Positions 18,083 through 27,037 of a stretch of 39,584 bases of DNA are shown here, piece by piece (within the stretch, counting starts at the first letter, position 1; each line of letters opens with the position of its first letter). Made by a program: the position numbers and the translations under genes. The notes under the pieces were generated by a model. It saw only the letters and a program-made list of their open reading frames with translations, was not told the DNA's origin and searched no databases. This DNA is from a virus (Duplodnaviria > Heunggongvirae > Uroviricota > Caudoviricetes). The stretch lies in the IMG/VR virus record IMGVR_UViG_2585427708_000019. One strand, 5' to 3'.

Positions 18083-18556
18083 ATGTCATCCATCGATGCA
18101 GCCGTGGTGGTGGACGTTGCGCGTCTCCAGCGGGTCTTTGCCCGGCTTCAGTTTGTGGGTGGTGGAAAAGACCTGGCCCGCAGTGTGGCGTCCAGCCTTC
18201 TGTCATCGTCAGAAATGGCGTTTGAACAGGAAAAAGAGCCGGACGGCGAACGCTGGCATGACTGGTCAGATCCTTACCGCAAGTGGCGTACCCGTAAGGG
18301 AAACATGCCCGGCAAAATCCTGACGCTGAACGGCGATCTGGCCCGACGCCTGACCACGGATTATGGCGATACCTGGGCGCTGATTGGATCAAATGAGCCT
18401 TATGCGGCCATTCATCAGTGGGGTGGCCTGCCAGGTATGCCGCCTGGACCGGCGGCCATTGGTGCACGTCCGTATATGGGTTTTGATCAGGTGGCAGAGC
18501 AGGAGATCATGGACGAAATCAGAAAACGCTTTAAAAAGGCCACAGAAAGGCCTTAA
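18083..18556 (+). CDS. Virion morphogenesis protein (Mu G-like)
   Basis: 157 aa with strong AAGGAGG RBS; position between the F-like gene and the protease/scaffold gene. Confidence 0.75.
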   Translation: MSSIDAAVVVDVARLQRVFARLQFVGGGKDLARSVASSLLSSSEMAFEQEKEPDGERWHDWSDPYRKWRTRKGNMPGKILTLNGDLARRLTTDYGDTWALIGSNEPYAAIHQWGGLPGMPPGPAAIGARPYMGFDQVAEQEIMDEIRKRFKKATERP

Positions 18557-18732
18557 TTGTTTAAGGTATGCAAATGCATTACCTTACCCCCTTCAGGCGC
18601 GTGTCGTGATTTTCTAACCTGTATTTAACGGGCTTTAAAATCTGCGTGAAGCGCCTTTGTATTTTTCCCCTGGAAGCACTTCCTGAAATCCCGCAAAACC
18701 CGCCCTGAAAATTCCCGGCCTATGCTGCCGGA

Positions 18733-19857
18733 ATGAAGACGAAAAACACGCCCAAACTTGCTTATGCCATTCTGAATGCCATCAGCCTGTCCGCAGACGG
18801 GGACGGTGACTGGTGTCAGATCATGCCAGCCGGTCGGGTAAAGGCCCGTGACGGTCGCCCGGAAAAACCGGCGGAAGGCTGGCTGATCAACCATGCAGCC
18901 GTTGAGCGCATGGTCTCCCGTGTTGTGGCGCTCAATCAGCCGGTGAAAATTGACTACAACCACCAGACCCTGATTGAGGGACATCCGGCACCGGCTGCCG
19001 GTTTTGTGATGGCCTCACCGGAGAATTTTCGCTTCAGTGAAGAGCGAGGTTTCGAGGTGCGCCCGAAGTGGAACCCTCCGGCCCTTGAACATCTGCGTAA
19101 TAACGAATTCCCCTGGTTTTCACCGGTGATTGGCTATGACGAGAGCACCGGCGAACCTGTCGAACTTCGGATGCTGGCTATTACCGGTGACCCCGGTCTG
19201 ACCGGCATGAATCCTGTCGCCGCACTGTCGGCGGATGACCTTTATAACGCCTTAAACCCTCCTTTAAAGGATACCTCCATGAATGAGCAATTACGCCAGT
19301 TGCTGACGGCGCTCGGTCTGACCGTGGCTGACGGTGACGAATTTACGCCGGAGCTGGGCACGGCGGCGCTGTCTGCCCTCACCGGGATCAAAACCCGTGC
19401 GGATGCACACGACAACCTGAAAACACAGGTCGCCAGTCTGTCGGCAGAGCTGGAAACCGCAAAAGGCACACCGGCTGGCGGCATTATTGATCTGACGAAA
19501 TACGTGCCCGTTGAAACGTATAACGCCCTGCGTACCGAATACGTTGCGCTGTCGGCGCAGCACGGCAGCACCACGCTGGAGCAGGTGCTGGACAAGGCTG
19601 AATCCGAAGGGCGCATCTTCAAAAGCGAACGCGGCTATCTGGAACAACTGGGCGGGCAGATTGGCGTTGCGGCACTTTCTGCACAGCTTGACGCCCGCCA
19701 GCCGGTTGCGGCCCTGACCTCTCTTCAGACCGACACCGTGACCGTGCCGGATAAAAAGACTGCCACCGCTGCGCTGTCGGCTGAAGATATCGCGGCCGCC
19801 AAACTGCTGGGTAAAACCGAAGCCGAGTTCCTGAAAATGAAAGAGGAAATGCAATAA
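18733..19857 (+). CDS. Prohead protease / scaffold (Mu I-like)
   Basis: 374 aa directly upstream of the major head gene; Ala/Leu-rich helical C-terminal half; size matches Mu I. Confidence 0.75.
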   Translation: MKTKNTPKLAYAILNAISLSADGDGDWCQIMPAGRVKARDGRPEKPAEGWLINHAAVERMVSRVVALNQPVKIDYNHQTLIEGHPAPAAGFVMASPENFRFSEERGFEVRPKWNPPALEHLRNNEFPWFSPVIGYDESTGEPVELRMLAITGDPGLTGMNPVAALSADDLYNALNPPLKDTSMNEQLRQLLTALGLTVADGDEFTPELGTAALSALTGIKTRADAHDNLKTQVASLSAELETAKGTPAGGIIDLTKYVPVETYNALRTEYVALSAQHGSTTLEQVLDKAESEGRIFKSERGYLEQLGGQIGVAALSAQLDARQPVAALTSLQTDTVTVPDKKTATAALSAEDIAAAKLLGKTEAEFLKMKEEMQ

Positions 19858-20804
19858 TGCCTACCCCGATTACACCGGCGATGATCACAGCCCTGATGAC
19901 GGGCTACCGTTCTGATTTTCAGGCCGGGATGTCCATGGCCCCGTCGCAGTATAAAAAAATTGCGATGACCGTGCCCTCCACATCGAAATCCAACACCTAC
20001 GGCTGGCTGGGGCAGTTCCCGCAGTTCCGTGAGTGGATCGGCTCCCGCGTCATCGAGAAGATGAAAGCCTATGGCTATGCCATCGTGAACAAAACTTTTG
20101 AAGGCACTGTCGCCATTAGCCGCGATGACTTCGAAGACGACAACCTCGGTATTTATTCCCCGTTGTTCCAGGAGATGGGGCGCGCTGCGGCGGTACAACC
20201 GGATGAGCTGGTCTTTGCTGCCCTGCGTGACGGGATCAGTGCGGCCTGCTATGACGGTCAGAACTTCTTTGATACCGAACATCCGGTTTACCCCAAAGTG
20301 GATGGCTCCGGGGATGCGCAGATGGTCAGCAATATGTTTGTGGCAAAAACCGGCTCTGTCGGCGCACAGGCTGATTACAGCGGTCCGGCCTGGTATCTGC
20401 TTGACTGCTCCCGCGCGGTAAAACCGCTGATTTATCAGGATCGCCGTAAGGCTGAACTGGTTGCCCAGACCAAAGTCGATGAAGGTCGCGCATTCACCGA
20501 TAACGAATTTGTGTTTGGTGCATCCGCCCGTCGCAATGTGGGCTACGGCTTCTGGCAGATGGCCTACATGATGCAGTCACCGCTGACGCTGGATGCACTG
20601 TGGCACGGCTGGTCAGCCATGCGCGAATTTACCGCTGACGGTGGCCGCAAACTCGGCATTAAACCCACCCATATTGTTGTCCCCACCTCGCTGGAAAAAC
20701 AGGCGGTGCAGCTGCTGGAGCGTGAACTGTTCGCAGACGGAAACGCAACCGTCTCTAACGAGATGAAGGGTAAGCTGGAGCTGGTTGTCGCGGATTATCT
20801 GTAA
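19857..20804 (+). CDS. Major head (capsid) protein (Mu T-like)
   Basis: 315 aa; ATG overlaps the upstream stop; AGAGGA RBS; size and position match Mu T. Confidence 0.8.
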   Translation: MPTPITPAMITALMTGYRSDFQAGMSMAPSQYKKIAMTVPSTSKSNTYGWLGQFPQFREWIGSRVIEKMKAYGYAIVNKTFEGTVAISRDDFEDDNLGIYSPLFQEMGRAAAVQPDELVFAALRDGISAACYDGQNFFDTEHPVYPKVDGSGDAQMVSNMFVAKTGSVGAQADYSGPAWYLLDCSRAVKPLIYQDRRKAELVAQTKVDEGRAFTDNEFVFGASARRNVGYGFWQMAYMMQSPLTLDALWHGWSAMREFTADGGRKLGIKPTHIVVPTSLEKQAVQLLERELFADGNATVSNEMKGKLELVVADYL

Positions 20805-20811
20805 ACGGTGA

Positions 20812-20830
20812 GCCGGGCTTACGGCCCGGC
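20812..20830 (+). other. GC-rich stem-loop just after the major head gene
   Basis: GCCGGGC-ttacg-GCCCGGC, 7-bp perfect stem, no U-tract. Confidence 0.4.
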
Positions 20831-20847
20831 CCCTGCGGAGGGCAAAT

Positions 20848-21252
20848 ATGAATGAACATCACACTGTGGCAGCAACAGATGATTCAGGTCTTCAGGTCAG
20901 TGGTGACAATTCTGTCACGGTGCTGGCAGAAGTGCGTTGCAGTCGTTCGGCGTTTCGTCGTGCGGGGTTCCTGTTCACGCGTGGACGTCAGCAGGTTGAG
21001 GTCACCCCGGAGCAGCTTGCCCGACTGGAGGAGGAGCCATGCCTCACTGTGCGAATACTACAGACGTCTGCTGATGATGCGGGGAGCGTGGCGGGTGTGG
21101 TTCATGCAGTGGCCGGTACAGATTTAGCCGAAGCCGAAGCCGAAGCCGAAGCCGAAGCCGAAGCCGAAGCCGAAGCCGAAGCCGAAGCCGAAGCCGGACA
21201 GGATGCTCCCCGGAAAAAGACCGGTAACAAAGCGGAACAGGCCCGTGCATGA
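20848..21252 (+). CDS. Head-module protein with C-terminal (Ala-Glu)n repeat
   Basis: 134 aa; GGAGGG RBS; C-terminus ...TDLAEAEAEAEAEAEAEAEAEAEAEAGQDAPRKK encoded by a perfect hexanucleotide array. Confidence 0.6.
   Translation: MNEHHTVAATDDSGLQVSGDNSVTVLAEVRCSRSAFRRAGFLFTRGRQQVEVTPEQLARLEEEPCLTVRILQTSADDAGSVAGVVHAVAGTDLAEAEAEAEAEAEAEAEAEAEAEAGQDAPRKKTGNKAEQARA
21127..21192 (+). repeat. (GCCGAA)11 perfect tandem hexanucleotide repeat within a CDS
   Basis: Eleven perfect GCCGAA copies plus a degenerate twelfth (GCCGGA); in-frame, encoding alternating Ala-Glu. Confidence 0.95.
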
Positions 21253-21668
21253 ATTACGCCACTGAAACCGATATGCGGGCGCGTTACCGCGAGGATTTGC
21301 TCAGGCCGTTACTGGCTGTGCCCCGTTCGGATGAGCCGGACACGCGCAAGCTGAACCGGGCGCTGACAGATGCGTCAGCCCTTATCGACAGCTATCTGTC
21401 CGCCCGTTACACGTTGCCGCTGGAGGTTATTCCGGCCGTTCTTGTTCAGCACTGTTGCGCGATTGCCTTTTATTACCTGTGCGATCAGCGAGCCTCCGAT
21501 CAGGCGCGTGACCGTTACCGTGAAGCGCTGGCCTGGCTGAAAGATGTCATGAACGGCAATGTGCCGGTCGGTGTGGATACGAACGGTGCGGCCCCTGAAT
21601 CCGGGGATTTACCACAGGTTCAGTCTGATGCAGCGGTATTCGGGCGCAACCAGAAGGGCTTCATATGA
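21249..21668 (+). CDS. Head-tail joining protein (Mu gp36-like)
   Basis: 139 aa, translationally coupled; position after the head genes. Confidence 0.6.
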   Translation: MNYATETDMRARYREDLLRPLLAVPRSDEPDTRKLNRALTDASALIDSYLSARYTLPLEVIPAVLVQHCCAIAFYYLCDQRASDQARDRYREALAWLKDVMNGNVPVGVDTNGAAPESGDLPQVQSDAAVFGRNQKGFI

Positions 21669-22225
21669 TTACGGAAACCGAACAGGCATACATCGCCCGT
21701 ATCCGTGAGTATTTCGGGAATGAACTGGTGTCTGTTGACACGCATCCCGGCGACTGGAGCGACAGCGTACTGCGCACCATGCTGATTAACGCCCCGGCGA
21801 TCTACGTTGCCTGGCTGGGTGCCGGTGAAGGCCGTACCCGTGGTCGCCTGGTCAGTCACTGGGTGTTCTACGTCATCGGCGACATGCTCAACGGGCGTGA
21901 GGCCAGCCGTCCCGGACTGTATCAGATTGTGGCCCGGCTGATTGCCGTGCTTAACGGCTTCAGAACAGAAAAAACCTCACCGCTTTACTTTGAAAAGGCG
22001 GTCAACGGTTACACCGAAACCCAGGCGGACAGTGGTGCGGTGATGTATGCGCTTTATTTCTCCTGCGAGGAAATGATCGCACCGCTGACCGATACCAGCT
22101 CGCTGGACGACTTCCTGCGTCATTACGAAACCTTTGTGGAGCCGCCCGGTACGCCGCCGTTTGAGGCACATATTGATTTGCCGGGGAACACGACAACGGC
22201 GGTCGAACCGCCGGAGGAACTGTAA
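21665..22225 (+). CDS. Head-tail module protein (Mu gp37-like)
   Basis: 186 aa, overlapping start/stop with neighbours. Confidence 0.6.
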   Translation: MITETEQAYIARIREYFGNELVSVDTHPGDWSDSVLRTMLINAPAIYVAWLGAGEGRTRGRLVSHWVFYVIGDMLNGREASRPGLYQIVARLIAVLNGFRTEKTSPLYFEKAVNGYTETQADSGAVMYALYFSCEEMIAPLTDTSSLDDFLRHYETFVEPPGTPPFEAHIDLPGNTTTAVEPPEEL

Positions 22226-22471
22226 ATGAAAACCATCTTTATCAAACCCGCGCCGGGACGCCTGATTCGTGATCCCGACACAATGCGCCCGCTGGCACAG
22301 GAGGGGGAGGAAAAGCCCTTTACGCCGTTCTGGTGTCGGCGTCTTGATGACGGCGATGTCATTCAGGCTGAAAAAGCCGCTGAAGAGGCTCCGGCTGTAT
22401 CTGCGGATGCAACGACTGCGACAGAAAAACCGGTCGCCCAACCGGCATCCGATAAGGAGAAACCGCAATGA
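22226..22471 (+). CDS. Small tail-module protein (Mu gp38-like)
   Basis: 81 aa immediately upstream of the sheath gene. Confidence 0.55.
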   Translation: MKTIFIKPAPGRLIRDPDTMRPLAQEGEEKPFTPFWCRRLDDGDVIQAEKAAEEAPAVSADATTATEKPVAQPASDKEKPQ

Positions 22472-23970
22472 TTAATTTTGACGGGATCGGTAATGACCGC
22501 CGTATACCGCTGATTGAGGTTGAGTTTAATAACTCCATGGCTGTCACCGGCACTCCGGCACAGCGTCAGTGTGTGCTGCTGTTTGGTCAGGCGAGAATGA
22601 AAGAGAATGCCGTGGACGGTGCCGGTGTTCTGGATGTTCCGGTCAGGATCACCCGTGCGTCTCAGGCAACAGAACTCTGGGGGCGCGGCTCCATGATTGC
22701 CCTGATGGTGGCGGAATTTATCGCCATCAATCCTGATGCTGAACTGTATGCCATTGCTCAGGGGAACGGCACCGGACAGGCAACGGCTGCGGCCATGAAT
22801 CTGACCGGAACGGTCACCCGTGACGGGATTGTTTATGCCTGCGTGGGGGGGCGGCGTTATACACTCCCGGCACCAAAAGGTAAGAAAGGCAAAGAACTGA
22901 CCGACGAGCTGGCCGCGCTGATCAATGCCGATCCTGACGCGCCCTTCACGGCCTCCTCTGGTGCAGGAAGTGGTGATAATGGCGCAGGTCTGAAAGGGTC
23001 TCTGGGGATCACCGCCCGCTTTACCGGTGAATGCTCCGTTCATGATGTGCGCCTGAACTATCACGACGGGGAAGCAACCCCGGAAGGAATACAGGTCGCT
23101 ATAGCCTATCCGAAACAAAAAGCGGCTAACCCGGATATCACCCGAAGCGTGGCGGGTATGGGCGATCGCCAGTACAACTATGTCGTCATGCCCTATAAGG
23201 ATGATGCAAACCTGAAAATCATCAGTGATGAGCTTCTGAAACGCTGGGGACCGGCCAAAATGTCTGACGGCGTGCTGTGGCTGGCACATACCGGCACGTT
23301 TGGTGAGGTGCAGGCATTCGGGGCAAAACGCAATGATTTTCTGGCGACCTGCACATCCATTCCCAAAGCCCCTGAACCGGATTACCTCTGGGCAGCGGCG
23401 GTCTGTGCCACCTGTGCACCCTCTCTGGGAGCAGATCCTGCGCGTCCGCTTCAGACGCTGGCGCTTCCGTCACGCATGGCCCCGGCTCCGGCCGATCGTC
23501 TGACGCGTGAAGAGCGTAACAGTCTGCTGTGGGGAGGGATTGCCACGGTCAGTGTGGCTGCCGGTGATGTGGTTCAGATCGAACGTCAGGTGACCATGTA
23601 TCGCCAGAACGTGTACGGCGAAAGTGATCCCAGCTATCTGGATGTGGAAACCATCTACACCCTCTCCTGGCTGCGTTATTCCCTGCGTACTTTTATCACA
23701 CAACGTTTTCCGCGCCATAAACTGGCTGATGACGGGACGCCCGTTCGTGCCGGTCAGAATATCGTGACGCCGGAGATCATGAAGCTTCAGTTAATTTCGC
23801 TGGGTGAAGAGTGGGTGGAACTCGGGCTGGTCGAAAATCTGGACACCTTTAAAAAGAATCTGCTTGTGGAGCGTAATGCGTCAGATCGAAACCGTCTTGA
23901 CGTGTTATGCACGCCGGATCTGGTTAACCAGTTCCGCTTCCTGGCAGCACAGATCCGTTTCATTTTGTGA
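22468..23970 (+). CDS. Contractile tail sheath protein (Mu L-like)
   Basis: 500 aa followed by a tube gene; size matches Mu L. Confidence 0.8.
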   Translation: MINFDGIGNDRRIPLIEVEFNNSMAVTGTPAQRQCVLLFGQARMKENAVDGAGVLDVPVRITRASQATELWGRGSMIALMVAEFIAINPDAELYAIAQGNGTGQATAAAMNLTGTVTRDGIVYACVGGRRYTLPAPKGKKGKELTDELAALINADPDAPFTASSGAGSGDNGAGLKGSLGITARFTGECSVHDVRLNYHDGEATPEGIQVAIAYPKQKAANPDITRSVAGMGDRQYNYVVMPYKDDANLKIISDELLKRWGPAKMSDGVLWLAHTGTFGEVQAFGAKRNDFLATCTSIPKAPEPDYLWAAAVCATCAPSLGADPARPLQTLALPSRMAPAPADRLTREERNSLLWGGIATVSVAAGDVVQIERQVTMYRQNVYGESDPSYLDVETIYTLSWLRYSLRTFITQRFPRHKLADDGTPVRAGQNIVTPEIMKLQLISLGEEWVELGLVENLDTFKKNLLVERNASDRNRLDVLCTPDLVNQFRFLAAQIRFIL

Positions 23971-23978
23971 GGTAAGGC

Positions 23979-24344
23979 ATGAGCGGAAAACAGTATCAGG
24001 GTACGGCCACTATCCGTGTGAACGGTCAGGAATACGAGACGCTTGAGGGGGCTACATTTTCTCCGTCTGGTTTTGAACGTGAAGTGGTGAAAGGCGCGAA
24101 AGTCTATGGTTACCGCCAGAAACCACGTGAAGCGACGCTGGACTGCAAATTTCCGGCAGGCGGAGAAGGTTCACCAGCCGCCGATGAAATCAACAACTGG
24201 ACTGCGGTCACTATCGAGTTTGTGGCGGATACCGGCGAAGTCCACATGATGACGAAGGCCTGGAGCAGTGAACCGGCCTCGCTTGACGGTGGCGGGGAGA
24301 TCTCCGTGAAGTTCGCCAGCGCCTCCAGTACCCGTGTTCAGTGA
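23979..24344 (+). CDS. Tail tube protein (Mu M-like)
   Basis: 121 aa directly after the sheath gene. Confidence 0.75.
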   Translation: MSGKQYQGTATIRVNGQEYETLEGATFSPSGFEREVVKGAKVYGYRQKPREATLDCKFPAGGEGSPAADEINNWTAVTIEFVADTGEVHMMTKAWSSEPASLDGGGEISVKFASASSTRVQ

Positions 24345-24835
24345 TCAGGAAAAATAAAATGACCACACGTAAGAAAAAAACGGCAGTTTCCGAGGCAGCC
24401 GTGATGGAGGCAATCCGGGAAGCACTTGAGGGGGCTGATCCACGCACTGCCGGGCTGACAGAGCAACTGGCAAAGGGATATGTGGATCTGCTTGATGGTC
24501 TGCCGTTTGGTGAGACCCGTGAATATCGTGTCACGTTCCGGGAACTGACAGCGAAAGACAGTATTGACGCAGAAGCAGAAGCCGAGCGCGTGGTGGAGAC
24601 AAACAATGGCCCGATGCTGATAGCGTCTCCGTCGTTACGCGGTGTTGCACTGCTGCGCCGTCAGATTGCCGCAGTGGGAGACATTGAAGGTCCGTTGTCA
24701 CCCCGTCAGATTGGACAGTTAAGCGAGCGCGATCTCTCCCGCCTGATGGCAGCGGTCAGCCTGCTGGATACCGCGCTTGCCGGAAAGCTGGCAGCTGACC
24801 GGGGGCGATCAGGCGCAGTGTCGGGATCAGATTGA
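24341..24835 (+). CDS. Tail assembly chaperone-like protein (Mu gp41-like)
   Basis: 164 aa between the tube and tape-measure genes. Confidence 0.55.
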   Translation: MIRKNKMTTRKKKTAVSEAAVMEAIREALEGADPRTAGLTEQLAKGYVDLLDGLPFGETREYRVTFRELTAKDSIDAEAEAERVVETNNGPMLIASPSLRGVALLRRQIAAVGDIEGPLSPRQIGQLSERDLSRLMAAVSLLDTALAGKLAADRGRSGAVSGSD

Positions 24836-24961
24836 AGAAGCGGCAATTATCCTGGGGATGGTGACAAAAAGCGGTCCGGAATGGGCGCTTAACCTCCCCC
24901 TGTCGCAACTTTACCGGCACTGCCGACAGACAGAAAAAATCATCAGAACGAAGCAGTAAGT

Positions 24962-27037
24962 ATGGCCCGAAATCTCAGAGCATCTCTGATAGTTGATTTG
25001 CTCGGCAATATCTCAGCCAAATCCCGCCAGTGGTCACAGGAGCTGGGGGCATTCTCACGCTCCGGCCAGGCGGGGCTGGGTGGCCTGGGAAATGCTGCCC
25101 GCCGTGCCGGGCAGGAAACAGATGTACTCGGAAGCAGGATGCAGCGCACGCTGGCCGGGGTGCGGGGCAGTATCCGCCATGTCACTTCTGATTTTGACCG
25201 TCTTCAGGGCAGTATTACCGGCACCATCGGGCGGATCAGCAATCTTTACGGAATGCTGGCCGGTGGTGCTGCTGTATATGGCTTTAACCGGGGATTTATT
25301 CGCCCGGCAGCGGAGATGGAAACCTATATGATTCGCCTGAACTCCCTTTACAAAGGGGATCGGGCGAAAACTGATGATGTCCGCAGGTGGGCAATACAGA
25401 ATGCGAAGGAAACCACCTGGGGGCTGGCTGGCGTCATGCAGGAATATACGTCCAGTCTGGGCTTTGGTATGAGTGACAGGGAGGCCCGAAATTTTGTCAC
25501 CATGCTTCAGGATCAGGGTGCCGTGGGCGGCTGGTCACTGTCCGATGCACAGGGGGCATCCCTGCAACTGAAACAGATGTATGCAAGAGGCAGTATTCAG
25601 GCGGCGGATGCAAATATTCTTGCCACCTACGGCATTAATGCCTACCGCGTGCTGGCTGATCGTCTGGGTGTGGACCAGAAAGTGGTCAGAAAACTTGGTG
25701 AAAAAGGGCTGCTTGGGCCGGACAGTATTCGCCTGTTATTTCAGACGCTGGCGGAACAGGCCAGGGGAGCACAAAAGGACGCAATGAATTCCTGGAGTGG
25801 CCTGACGGCCATGATGGGTGACGTCTGGGACCAGTTTGCCCGGGATGTGATGGACAGTGGGCCATTTGAAAAACTGAAGGGTAATCTCAGGGGATTTCTT
25901 TCATGGGTTGACAGTGCCAAATCTGATGGCAGTTACCATTCCCTGGCGGAAAGCACGGCATCAGCCATGAACCAGGGCTTTGAGTATGCCCGTGATGCAG
26001 TGACTGGGTTTTATCAGGCGATCAGAAAGGTACGCGACACGCTTCAGGCTCTGCGGGATGCGGGCTATGGTGATGCGCTGGATCGCATTGGTCAGGGGGC
26101 ACAGACCGCCGCGAAATACCTGCTGTACATGTATCTCGCCACCCGTGCCCTGAAAATGGCGCGGGCTGTCGGAACGGGGATTATACGTCCGGGTGCTGCA
26201 TTGCTGGGATACGGATTATCAGCGGCGGCCTTCCTGACCTCACCTTTCCGGCGCTCTCCTCCGGCCGGAACACCACCAGGCACATATCAGGGACGAGGGC
26301 AACGTTTTATAAACTTTCTTACCGGGGTAAATCCGGCAGCCGTTCAGCCAGTACTTGTAACAAACTGGCCCACAGGAGGACTGTCCGGCACCGGCGCGAC
26401 CGATACATCCTCAGGCGGACGTCAGGGGCGGGGCCGCAGGAAACGCGGACCGGGGCGCGGAAGACCGGTCACGCCTCCCCTGCCACCGTCCCCAGTGCCA
26501 CCGTCTCCCTCTTCTGGTGGGGCAGGGTTCTGGGGGCGCATGATGGGGCGCGCCGGTGGGTTACTTTCGTCTGTCGGTAGCCGCATGGGGCTGGGGCGTT
26601 TCTCCGGCTTTTTCCGCAGTGCCGGTGGACTGGCCGGCCGGCTGGGTGGAGGTGCCCTGTGGGCTGGCGCGATGGCAGCCCCGGTTCTGCTGGATGGCAG
26701 CGCCAGTGCCACAGACAAGGGAGAAGCGGTCGGCTCTCTTGCAGGCAGTATTGCCGGTGGTGCGCTGGGGGCGGCAGCCGGACCTGTGGGGATTGCCATT
26801 GGTTCTACGGTGGGCAGCTATCTCGGTAACTATCTGGGGGGATGGCTGACTGAAGCCTGGCAGAAATTACGGGGCAGTGATGATGAAAGCAGTGGACAGG
26901 CGGTACAAAAAGCCTCTGCCCGTGTGGAGCTGGTTGCCCCGGAAGGGTGGCAGGCTCGCAGTATTGATATTGATGACACGTCCGGTCACGGACTGGATGT
27001 GAATGTCTGGAACGGAGGGAATTATGGCCTCTGGTGA
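24962..27037 (+). CDS. Tail tape measure protein
   Basis: 691 aa, largest tail gene, after the chaperone; Gly/Arg/Pro-rich low-complexity segment. Confidence 0.8.
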   Translation: MARNLRASLIVDLLGNISAKSRQWSQELGAFSRSGQAGLGGLGNAARRAGQETDVLGSRMQRTLAGVRGSIRHVTSDFDRLQGSITGTIGRISNLYGMLAGGAAVYGFNRGFIRPAAEMETYMIRLNSLYKGDRAKTDDVRRWAIQNAKETTWGLAGVMQEYTSSLGFGMSDREARNFVTMLQDQGAVGGWSLSDAQGASLQLKQMYARGSIQAADANILATYGINAYRVLADRLGVDQKVVRKLGEKGLLGPDSIRLLFQTLAEQARGAQKDAMNSWSGLTAMMGDVWDQFARDVMDSGPFEKLKGNLRGFLSWVDSAKSDGSYHSLAESTASAMNQGFEYARDAVTGFYQAIRKVRDTLQALRDAGYGDALDRIGQGAQTAAKYLLYMYLATRALKMARAVGTGIIRPGAALLGYGLSAAAFLTSPFRRSPPAGTPPGTYQGRGQRFINFLTGVNPAAVQPVLVTNWPTGGLSGTGATDTSSGGRQGRGRRKRGPGRGRPVTPPLPPSPVPPSPSSGGAGFWGRMMGRAGGLLSSVGSRMGLGRFSGFFRSAGGLAGRLGGGALWAGAMAAPVLLDGSASATDKGEAVGSLAGSIAGGALGAAAGPVGIAIGSTVGSYLGNYLGGWLTEAWQKLRGSDDESSGQAVQKASARVELVAPEGWQARSIDIDDTSGHGLDVNVWNGGNYGLW

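Follow-up and report, generated by a model that had tools for sequence, protein, structure and literature searches.

The perfect (GCCGAA)11 array in this Mu-like prophage is EHC-5, an already established VNTR locus used to type enterohemorrhagic Escherichia coli. The locus is very probably a coding hexanucleotide microsatellite in a gp35-like gene of an Sp18-type prophage, whose length changes by slippage with the reading frame kept and with nearly neutral effect. The evidence comes from a window of 39,584 nucleotides, the whole stretch of DNA that was analyzed, from its relatives in complete and draft E. coli genomes, and from published typing primers. The coordinates of the features are collected in Table 1.

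Table 1. Features of the window that bear on the repeat array, in window coordinates
Feature	Coordinates	Strand	Basis or remark
Sp18-type Mu-like transposable prophage carrying the array	294..39067	+	99.94% identity to Sakai Sp18
Mu I protease/scaffold gene	18733..19857		5' of gpT gene
Mu gpT major head gene	19857..20804		Pfam Mu-like_gpT, E 6.6e-119
134-aa Mu gp35/HI1506-related gene (FluMu_N, (AE)n tract, basic tail GQDAPRKKTGNKAEQARA)	20848..21252	+	
FluMu_N domain-coding region, residues 36-72	20953..21063	+	PF17891 score; PDB 2OUT match
EHC-5 forward primer ATACTACAGACGTCTGCTGATGA	21055..21077	+	Exact; primers from PMC10062581 S5 Table
(GCCGAA)11 array, variable part of EHC-5	21127..21192	+	Direct reading, TRF, shuffles, allele series
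Degenerate terminal unit GCCGGA (Ala-Gly)	21193..21198	+	Parsed alleles
EHC-5 reverse primer CCGCTTTGTTACCGGTCTTTTTC	21213..21235	-	Exact; primers from PMC10062581 S5 Table
Mu gp36 adaptor family gene	21249..21668		Directly after 134-aa gene
gp37 family gene	21665..22225		After gp36; DUF2635, then tail sheath next

The array and the typing locus EHC-5

The first-pass annotation had described 11 perfect GCCGAA units within a 134-aa gene directly 3' of the major capsid gene, and its coordinates, copy number, and reading frame agree with both our direct reading of the sequence and the output of TRF. TRF reports the array at 21126-21196, with a period of 6, 11.8 copies, 100% matches, and a score of 142, and it finds no other tandem array above about 3 copies in the window. 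The 18-mer (GCCGAA)3 occurs exactly 9 times in the window, compared to 0 times in 100 dinucleotide-preserving shuffles. The array lies in frame 0 of the open reading frame, since the offset between the two starts (21127 - 20848) is 279 nucleotides, or 93 codons, and it encodes residues 94 to 115 as (Ala-Glu)11. It is followed directly by the single degenerate unit. Two other open reading frames touch the array: one of 68 aa on the minus strand (21044-21250), which reads through it as (Arg-Leu)n, and one of 91 aa in the +1 frame (20852-21127, plus strand), which ends where the array begins. We rejected both as mechanical by-products of the repeat and GC-rich coding sequence; the +1-frame reading is annotated by some gene callers in frameshifted copies (P0082).

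Both EHC-5 primers match the window with 0 mismatches, each at a unique position, and they converge around the array to give an amplicon of 181 bp. Because it is enclosed by the two primers, both of them exact matches, the array is the established typing locus, and the feature was thus already known. The remaining 34 primers of the same table (PMC10062581 S5 Table) are absent from the window. These include the primers for EHC-6, a locus that is frequently seen together with EHC-5 in published tables and that we had considered as a second one on the same prophage. EHC-5 belongs to the MLVA scheme for EHEC O157, O26, and O111 that Hirai et al. (2023) credit to Izumiya et al. (2010) (PMC10062581). 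In fragment analysis of O157 clades, 31 to 100% of strains, depending on the clade, had a null allele, and the alleles seen where the locus was present were 2, 3, 5, 6, 7, 10, 11, 12, 13, and 14 (PMC10062581). A locus that is absent from many strains and highly polymorphic in the rest is what would be expected of a hypervariable repeat carried by a prophage that is itself present in some strains only. The typing literature supplies primers and allele counts for EHC-5, and its gene context, a gp35-like gene of Sp18 that corresponds to ECs_4975 in strain Sakai, is established here. The other O157 VNTR loci (O157-3, -9, -10, -17, -19, -25, and -37) are likewise short tandem arrays that change by whole units; unlike them, EHC-5 is carried by a mobile Mu-like prophage and can therefore be absent, relocated, or present in multiple copies per genome.

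Copy number in an otherwise almost invariant prophage

The prophage is the counterpart of Sp18 of E. coli O157:H7 Sakai, which is predicted to be intact and whose DNA is packaged (PMC2669165). Over 38.8 kb, the window and Sakai Sp18 differ by 5 single-nucleotide polymorphisms, one 1-bp indel, and 3 repeat units (18 bp), with 8 units in Sakai and 11 in the window. The array is the fastest-changing site in this otherwise almost invariant prophage.

We also recorded several features of the prophage at large. Mu-like prophages occupy strain-specific sites (PMC7430833), and the flanks of this one, at 1-293 and 39068-39584, are not a continuation of the sorM insertion site of Sakai, which fits a different site of transposition. 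Near both prophage ends (about 405 to 470, and 39019-39050 in a TRF row) there are inverted copies of a TTTGATACCG/CGGTATCAAA-type motif, which are probably transposase end-binding sites. The prophage ends gave no match to the Mu attL and attR sequences with up to 6 mismatches allowed. Two inverted repeat arms of 185 nucleotides each (32670-32854 and 33876-34060), 77% complementary and 1,021 nucleotides apart, flank oppositely oriented tail-fiber and tail-fiber-assembly genes beside a DNA-invertase gene. This arrangement looks like the G-segment-like invertible host-range region described for Sp18, and the sole 1-bp indel relative to Sakai (window position 34052) falls within its right arm. 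The early region at 8741-8946 is mosaic compared to the prophage of strain 121, which is 98 to 99% identical, with 205 bp and 671 bp, respectively, between collinear blocks.

A search with a 1.5-kb query found the locus in 233 of 5,426 complete E. coli genomes, O157:H7, O26, O111:H8, and O103 strains among them; the search gives the best place per record, so that our allele counts cover one prophage copy per genome, although genomes such as NZ_CP166879 and NZ_CP062782 have 2 to 4 copies. Matches with 100% identical flanks were 1,465, 1,471, 1,501, 1,531, 1,543, and 1,555 bp long, differing by multiples of 6. With a 366-bp query, an even sample taken down the ranking gave matched lengths of 310 to 411 bp, equivalent to about 1, 2, 4 to 15, 17, and 18 units after allowing for a 9-bp variant of the C-terminal tail. 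We then read the alleles of the window, of Sakai, and of ten loci in E. coli genomes, 12 sequences in all, and found 11 distinct sizes. Perfect GCCGAA arrays had 1, 2, 5, 8, 11, 13, 14 (at two loci), 15, 18, and 20 units, and one allele of 17 units included two GTCGAA units. All differences were of whole units, the reading frame and stop codon were kept in 12 of 12 sequences, the terminal GCCGGA was present once in every one, and the leader was the same save for a single substitution in locus L009. The near-clonal cattle strains 121 and 136, whose genome lengths are 7 bp apart in total, differ within 40.4 kb around the locus only in the number of units, 13 in one and 14 in the other. Thus, copy number is far from uniform among relatives with conserved flanks, and the repeat changes in length without a frameshift, as the first-pass annotation had proposed and as the PCR alleles of 2 to 14 also indicate.

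Protein databases show further variation. Cluster representatives at 90% identity include (AE)1-5, (AE)n(AG)n, AEVEVE..., and other variants, and in some database alleles (P0001, P0002, P0005, and P0016) the terminal Ala-Gly unit has grown to (AG)n. In one draft E. coli genome (P0071; GCA_026134135.1, L017 1390-1565), several small indels shift the repeat into the +1 frame, where it reads (Lys-Pro)n, until the frame is restored, and this could be either a sequencing error or a real variant.

Many database proteins labeled partial stop inside or at the tract, including P0054 (82 member sequences), P0062 (35), P0069 (15), P0063 (10), and others; for P0054, three contigs from different assemblies each end 30 to 32 nucleotides into the array. 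These contig breaks and truncated proteins indicate that short-read assemblers have trouble with the array, and the predicted difficulty in assembly is borne out at least in this form. They also raise the question of whether the array is real while its copy-number variation, including the value of 11, reflects assembly collapse or expansion. We consider this very improbable, because eight other complete genomes share an identical 1,501-bp segment with 11 units, the length differences are always whole perfect units in exact multiples of 6 bp, and independent PCR fragment sizing recovers a range of alleles at a locus that is in routine typing use.

The gene and protein that carry the array

The 134-aa gene sits between the major head gene gpT and gp36, as in Mu, and its stop codon overlaps the gp36 start codon (ATGA at 21249-21252). 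A GC-rich hairpin (GCCGGGC-TTACG-GCCCGGC, 20812-20830) lies between the gpT stop and the start of the gp35-like gene; the surrounding region (20800-20850) has a predicted folding energy of -21.7 kcal/mol (z = -1.5) and is without a T-tract, whereas the corresponding place in the Mu record is labeled as a predicted terminator. A simple promoter and terminator scan around the 134-aa gene found nothing, and an Rfam scan of the window gave no match.

The FluMu_N domain (PF17891) scores 35.1 bits over residues 36 to 72, above the Pfam gathering cutoff of 25.8. The protein also matches PDB 2OUT, the nuclear magnetic resonance structure of the Haemophilus FluMu protein HI1506, at an E value of 1.6e-4, and phage Mu gp35, with 56% identity over 36 residues and a BLASTP E value of 7e-12. 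RefSeq names it an HI1506-related protein. The Sakai RefSeq record calls ECs_4975 (L018 21525-21911) a DNA processing protein, a name to which the domain and homology results give no support.

Queried with the first 93 residues of the protein, phmmer matched 14 of 1.8 billion representatives, in which the family architecture is visible but which are too few for a deep alignment. Aligned with Mu gp35 and distant relatives, the family has a variable leader, FluMu_N, a short Gly/Asp/Pro-rich linker, and a conserved C-terminal helical domain (DLNxRIRxAVAxL...). The 134-aa protein shares with Mu gp35 and HI1506 its place between T and gp36 and its N-terminal FluMu_N. In contrast to them, it lacks the C-terminal helical domain: in the Sp18 lineage, the residues DL are followed by (AE)n and then the 18-residue basic tail GQDAPRKKTGNKAEQARA, making it a C-terminally divergent member of the family. 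With a single unit, the allele has the sequence DLAEAGQD, which resembles LAEAGGLD of Mu. This similarity and the position of the tract indicate that the (AE)n tract grew out of the linker and occupies the place of a former C-terminal domain. Two other family members (P0086 and P0094) likewise have C termini of low complexity, rich in Ala, Glu, and Lys. The tract had been described as an acidic linker, which holds only approximately, since it does not join two folded domains and instead runs from FluMu_N to the basic tail. In the simplest reading, (Ala-Glu)n is a tolerated, unconstrained tail.

Mechanism and meaning of the length changes

Because the units are identical, whole-unit misalignment between the nascent and template strands in the course of replication is the most likely source of the changes, ahead of unequal sister-strand exchange. 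Either process would add or remove 6-bp units and, as 6 is a multiple of 3, each event would lengthen or shorten only (Ala-Glu)n and never break the frame. As a single strand, the array is practically devoid of secondary structure (DNA fold z = +2.3), which makes a hairpin-driven mechanism unlikely and is consistent with simple misalignment. Since the region of the tract between FluMu_N and the short basic tail is not conserved in the family, changes in its length are probably tolerated and neutral or nearly so, so that new alleles would build up far more quickly than point substitutions. For other O157 VNTR loci, whole-unit mutation was measured in serial passage at 4.4e-5 to 1.8e-3 per generation (PMC3777172).

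Simple-sequence repeats within coding regions can act as switches, and the overlap of the stop codon with the gp36 start could extend such an effect to a translationally coupled downstream gene. That slippage toggles gp35 or gp36 on and off is, in our judgment, next to impossible. A unit of 6 nucleotides cannot shift the frame, so that for whole-unit changes both the arithmetic and the alleles refute a switch; the constant frame and stop codon in the sequences that we read agree with this, and the only frameshifted reading, (KP)n in P0071, is due to extra small indels in a single draft genome. The contingency loci of Haemophilus and Neisseria likewise rely on slippage at perfect simple-sequence repeats inside genes, but their units of 1, 2, 4, 5, or 7 nucleotides shift the frame and switch expression, whereas the 6-nucleotide unit of EHC-5 alters protein length only. 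EHC-5 is thus unlike a phase-variable contingency locus, in which slippage alters the frame or the promoter spacing and thereby switches expression.

Length itself could be the object of selection if a connector-associated virion protein contained a spacer whose reach or charge depended on the number of Ala-Glu units. Mu gp35 is described as probably structural and possibly connector related, and was not resolved in a 2025 cryo-electron microscopy study of Mu (PMC11915804); the Mu GenBank record labels it a head-to-tail connector complex protein. Such adaptive tuning would also fit the state of Sp18, which is probably a working phage that expresses the gene, as well as the perfect purity of arrays of up to 20 units and a single-sequence AlphaFold model with one helix over residues 93 to 115, a low-confidence prediction (pLDDT of about 55 to 66; whole-model mean, 54). 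Even so, we regard it as unlikely. No phenotype is tied to allele length, prophages that are nearly identical elsewhere carry alleles ranging from 1 to 20 units, and interrupted, Ala-Gly, and Val-Glu variants exist. Slippage alone would yield pure long arrays, and the replacement of a domain conserved elsewhere in the family suggests relaxed rather than tuned constraint. It is correspondingly improbable that the tract serves a connector-associated gp35 of the Sp18 virion as an acidic helix of adjustable length by which the basic tail is positioned. If it did, slippage would give this active transposable phage a heritable and rapidly reversible spread of particle properties such as DNA retention, stability, or assembly efficiency, and a structural module of a phage would contain a contingency locus of the length type.

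We therefore favor near-neutral slippage in a coding microsatellite as the explanation for EHC-5, a locus that public health laboratories use to fingerprint enterohemorrhagic E. coli. The copy number of the array in any assembly carries strain-level information and is possibly misassembled, and the array splits short-read contigs partway through the prophage. As this locus shows, proteins of the gp35 family tolerate large changes in the length of their C-terminal part, which places a modest constraint on ideas about the role of gp35.
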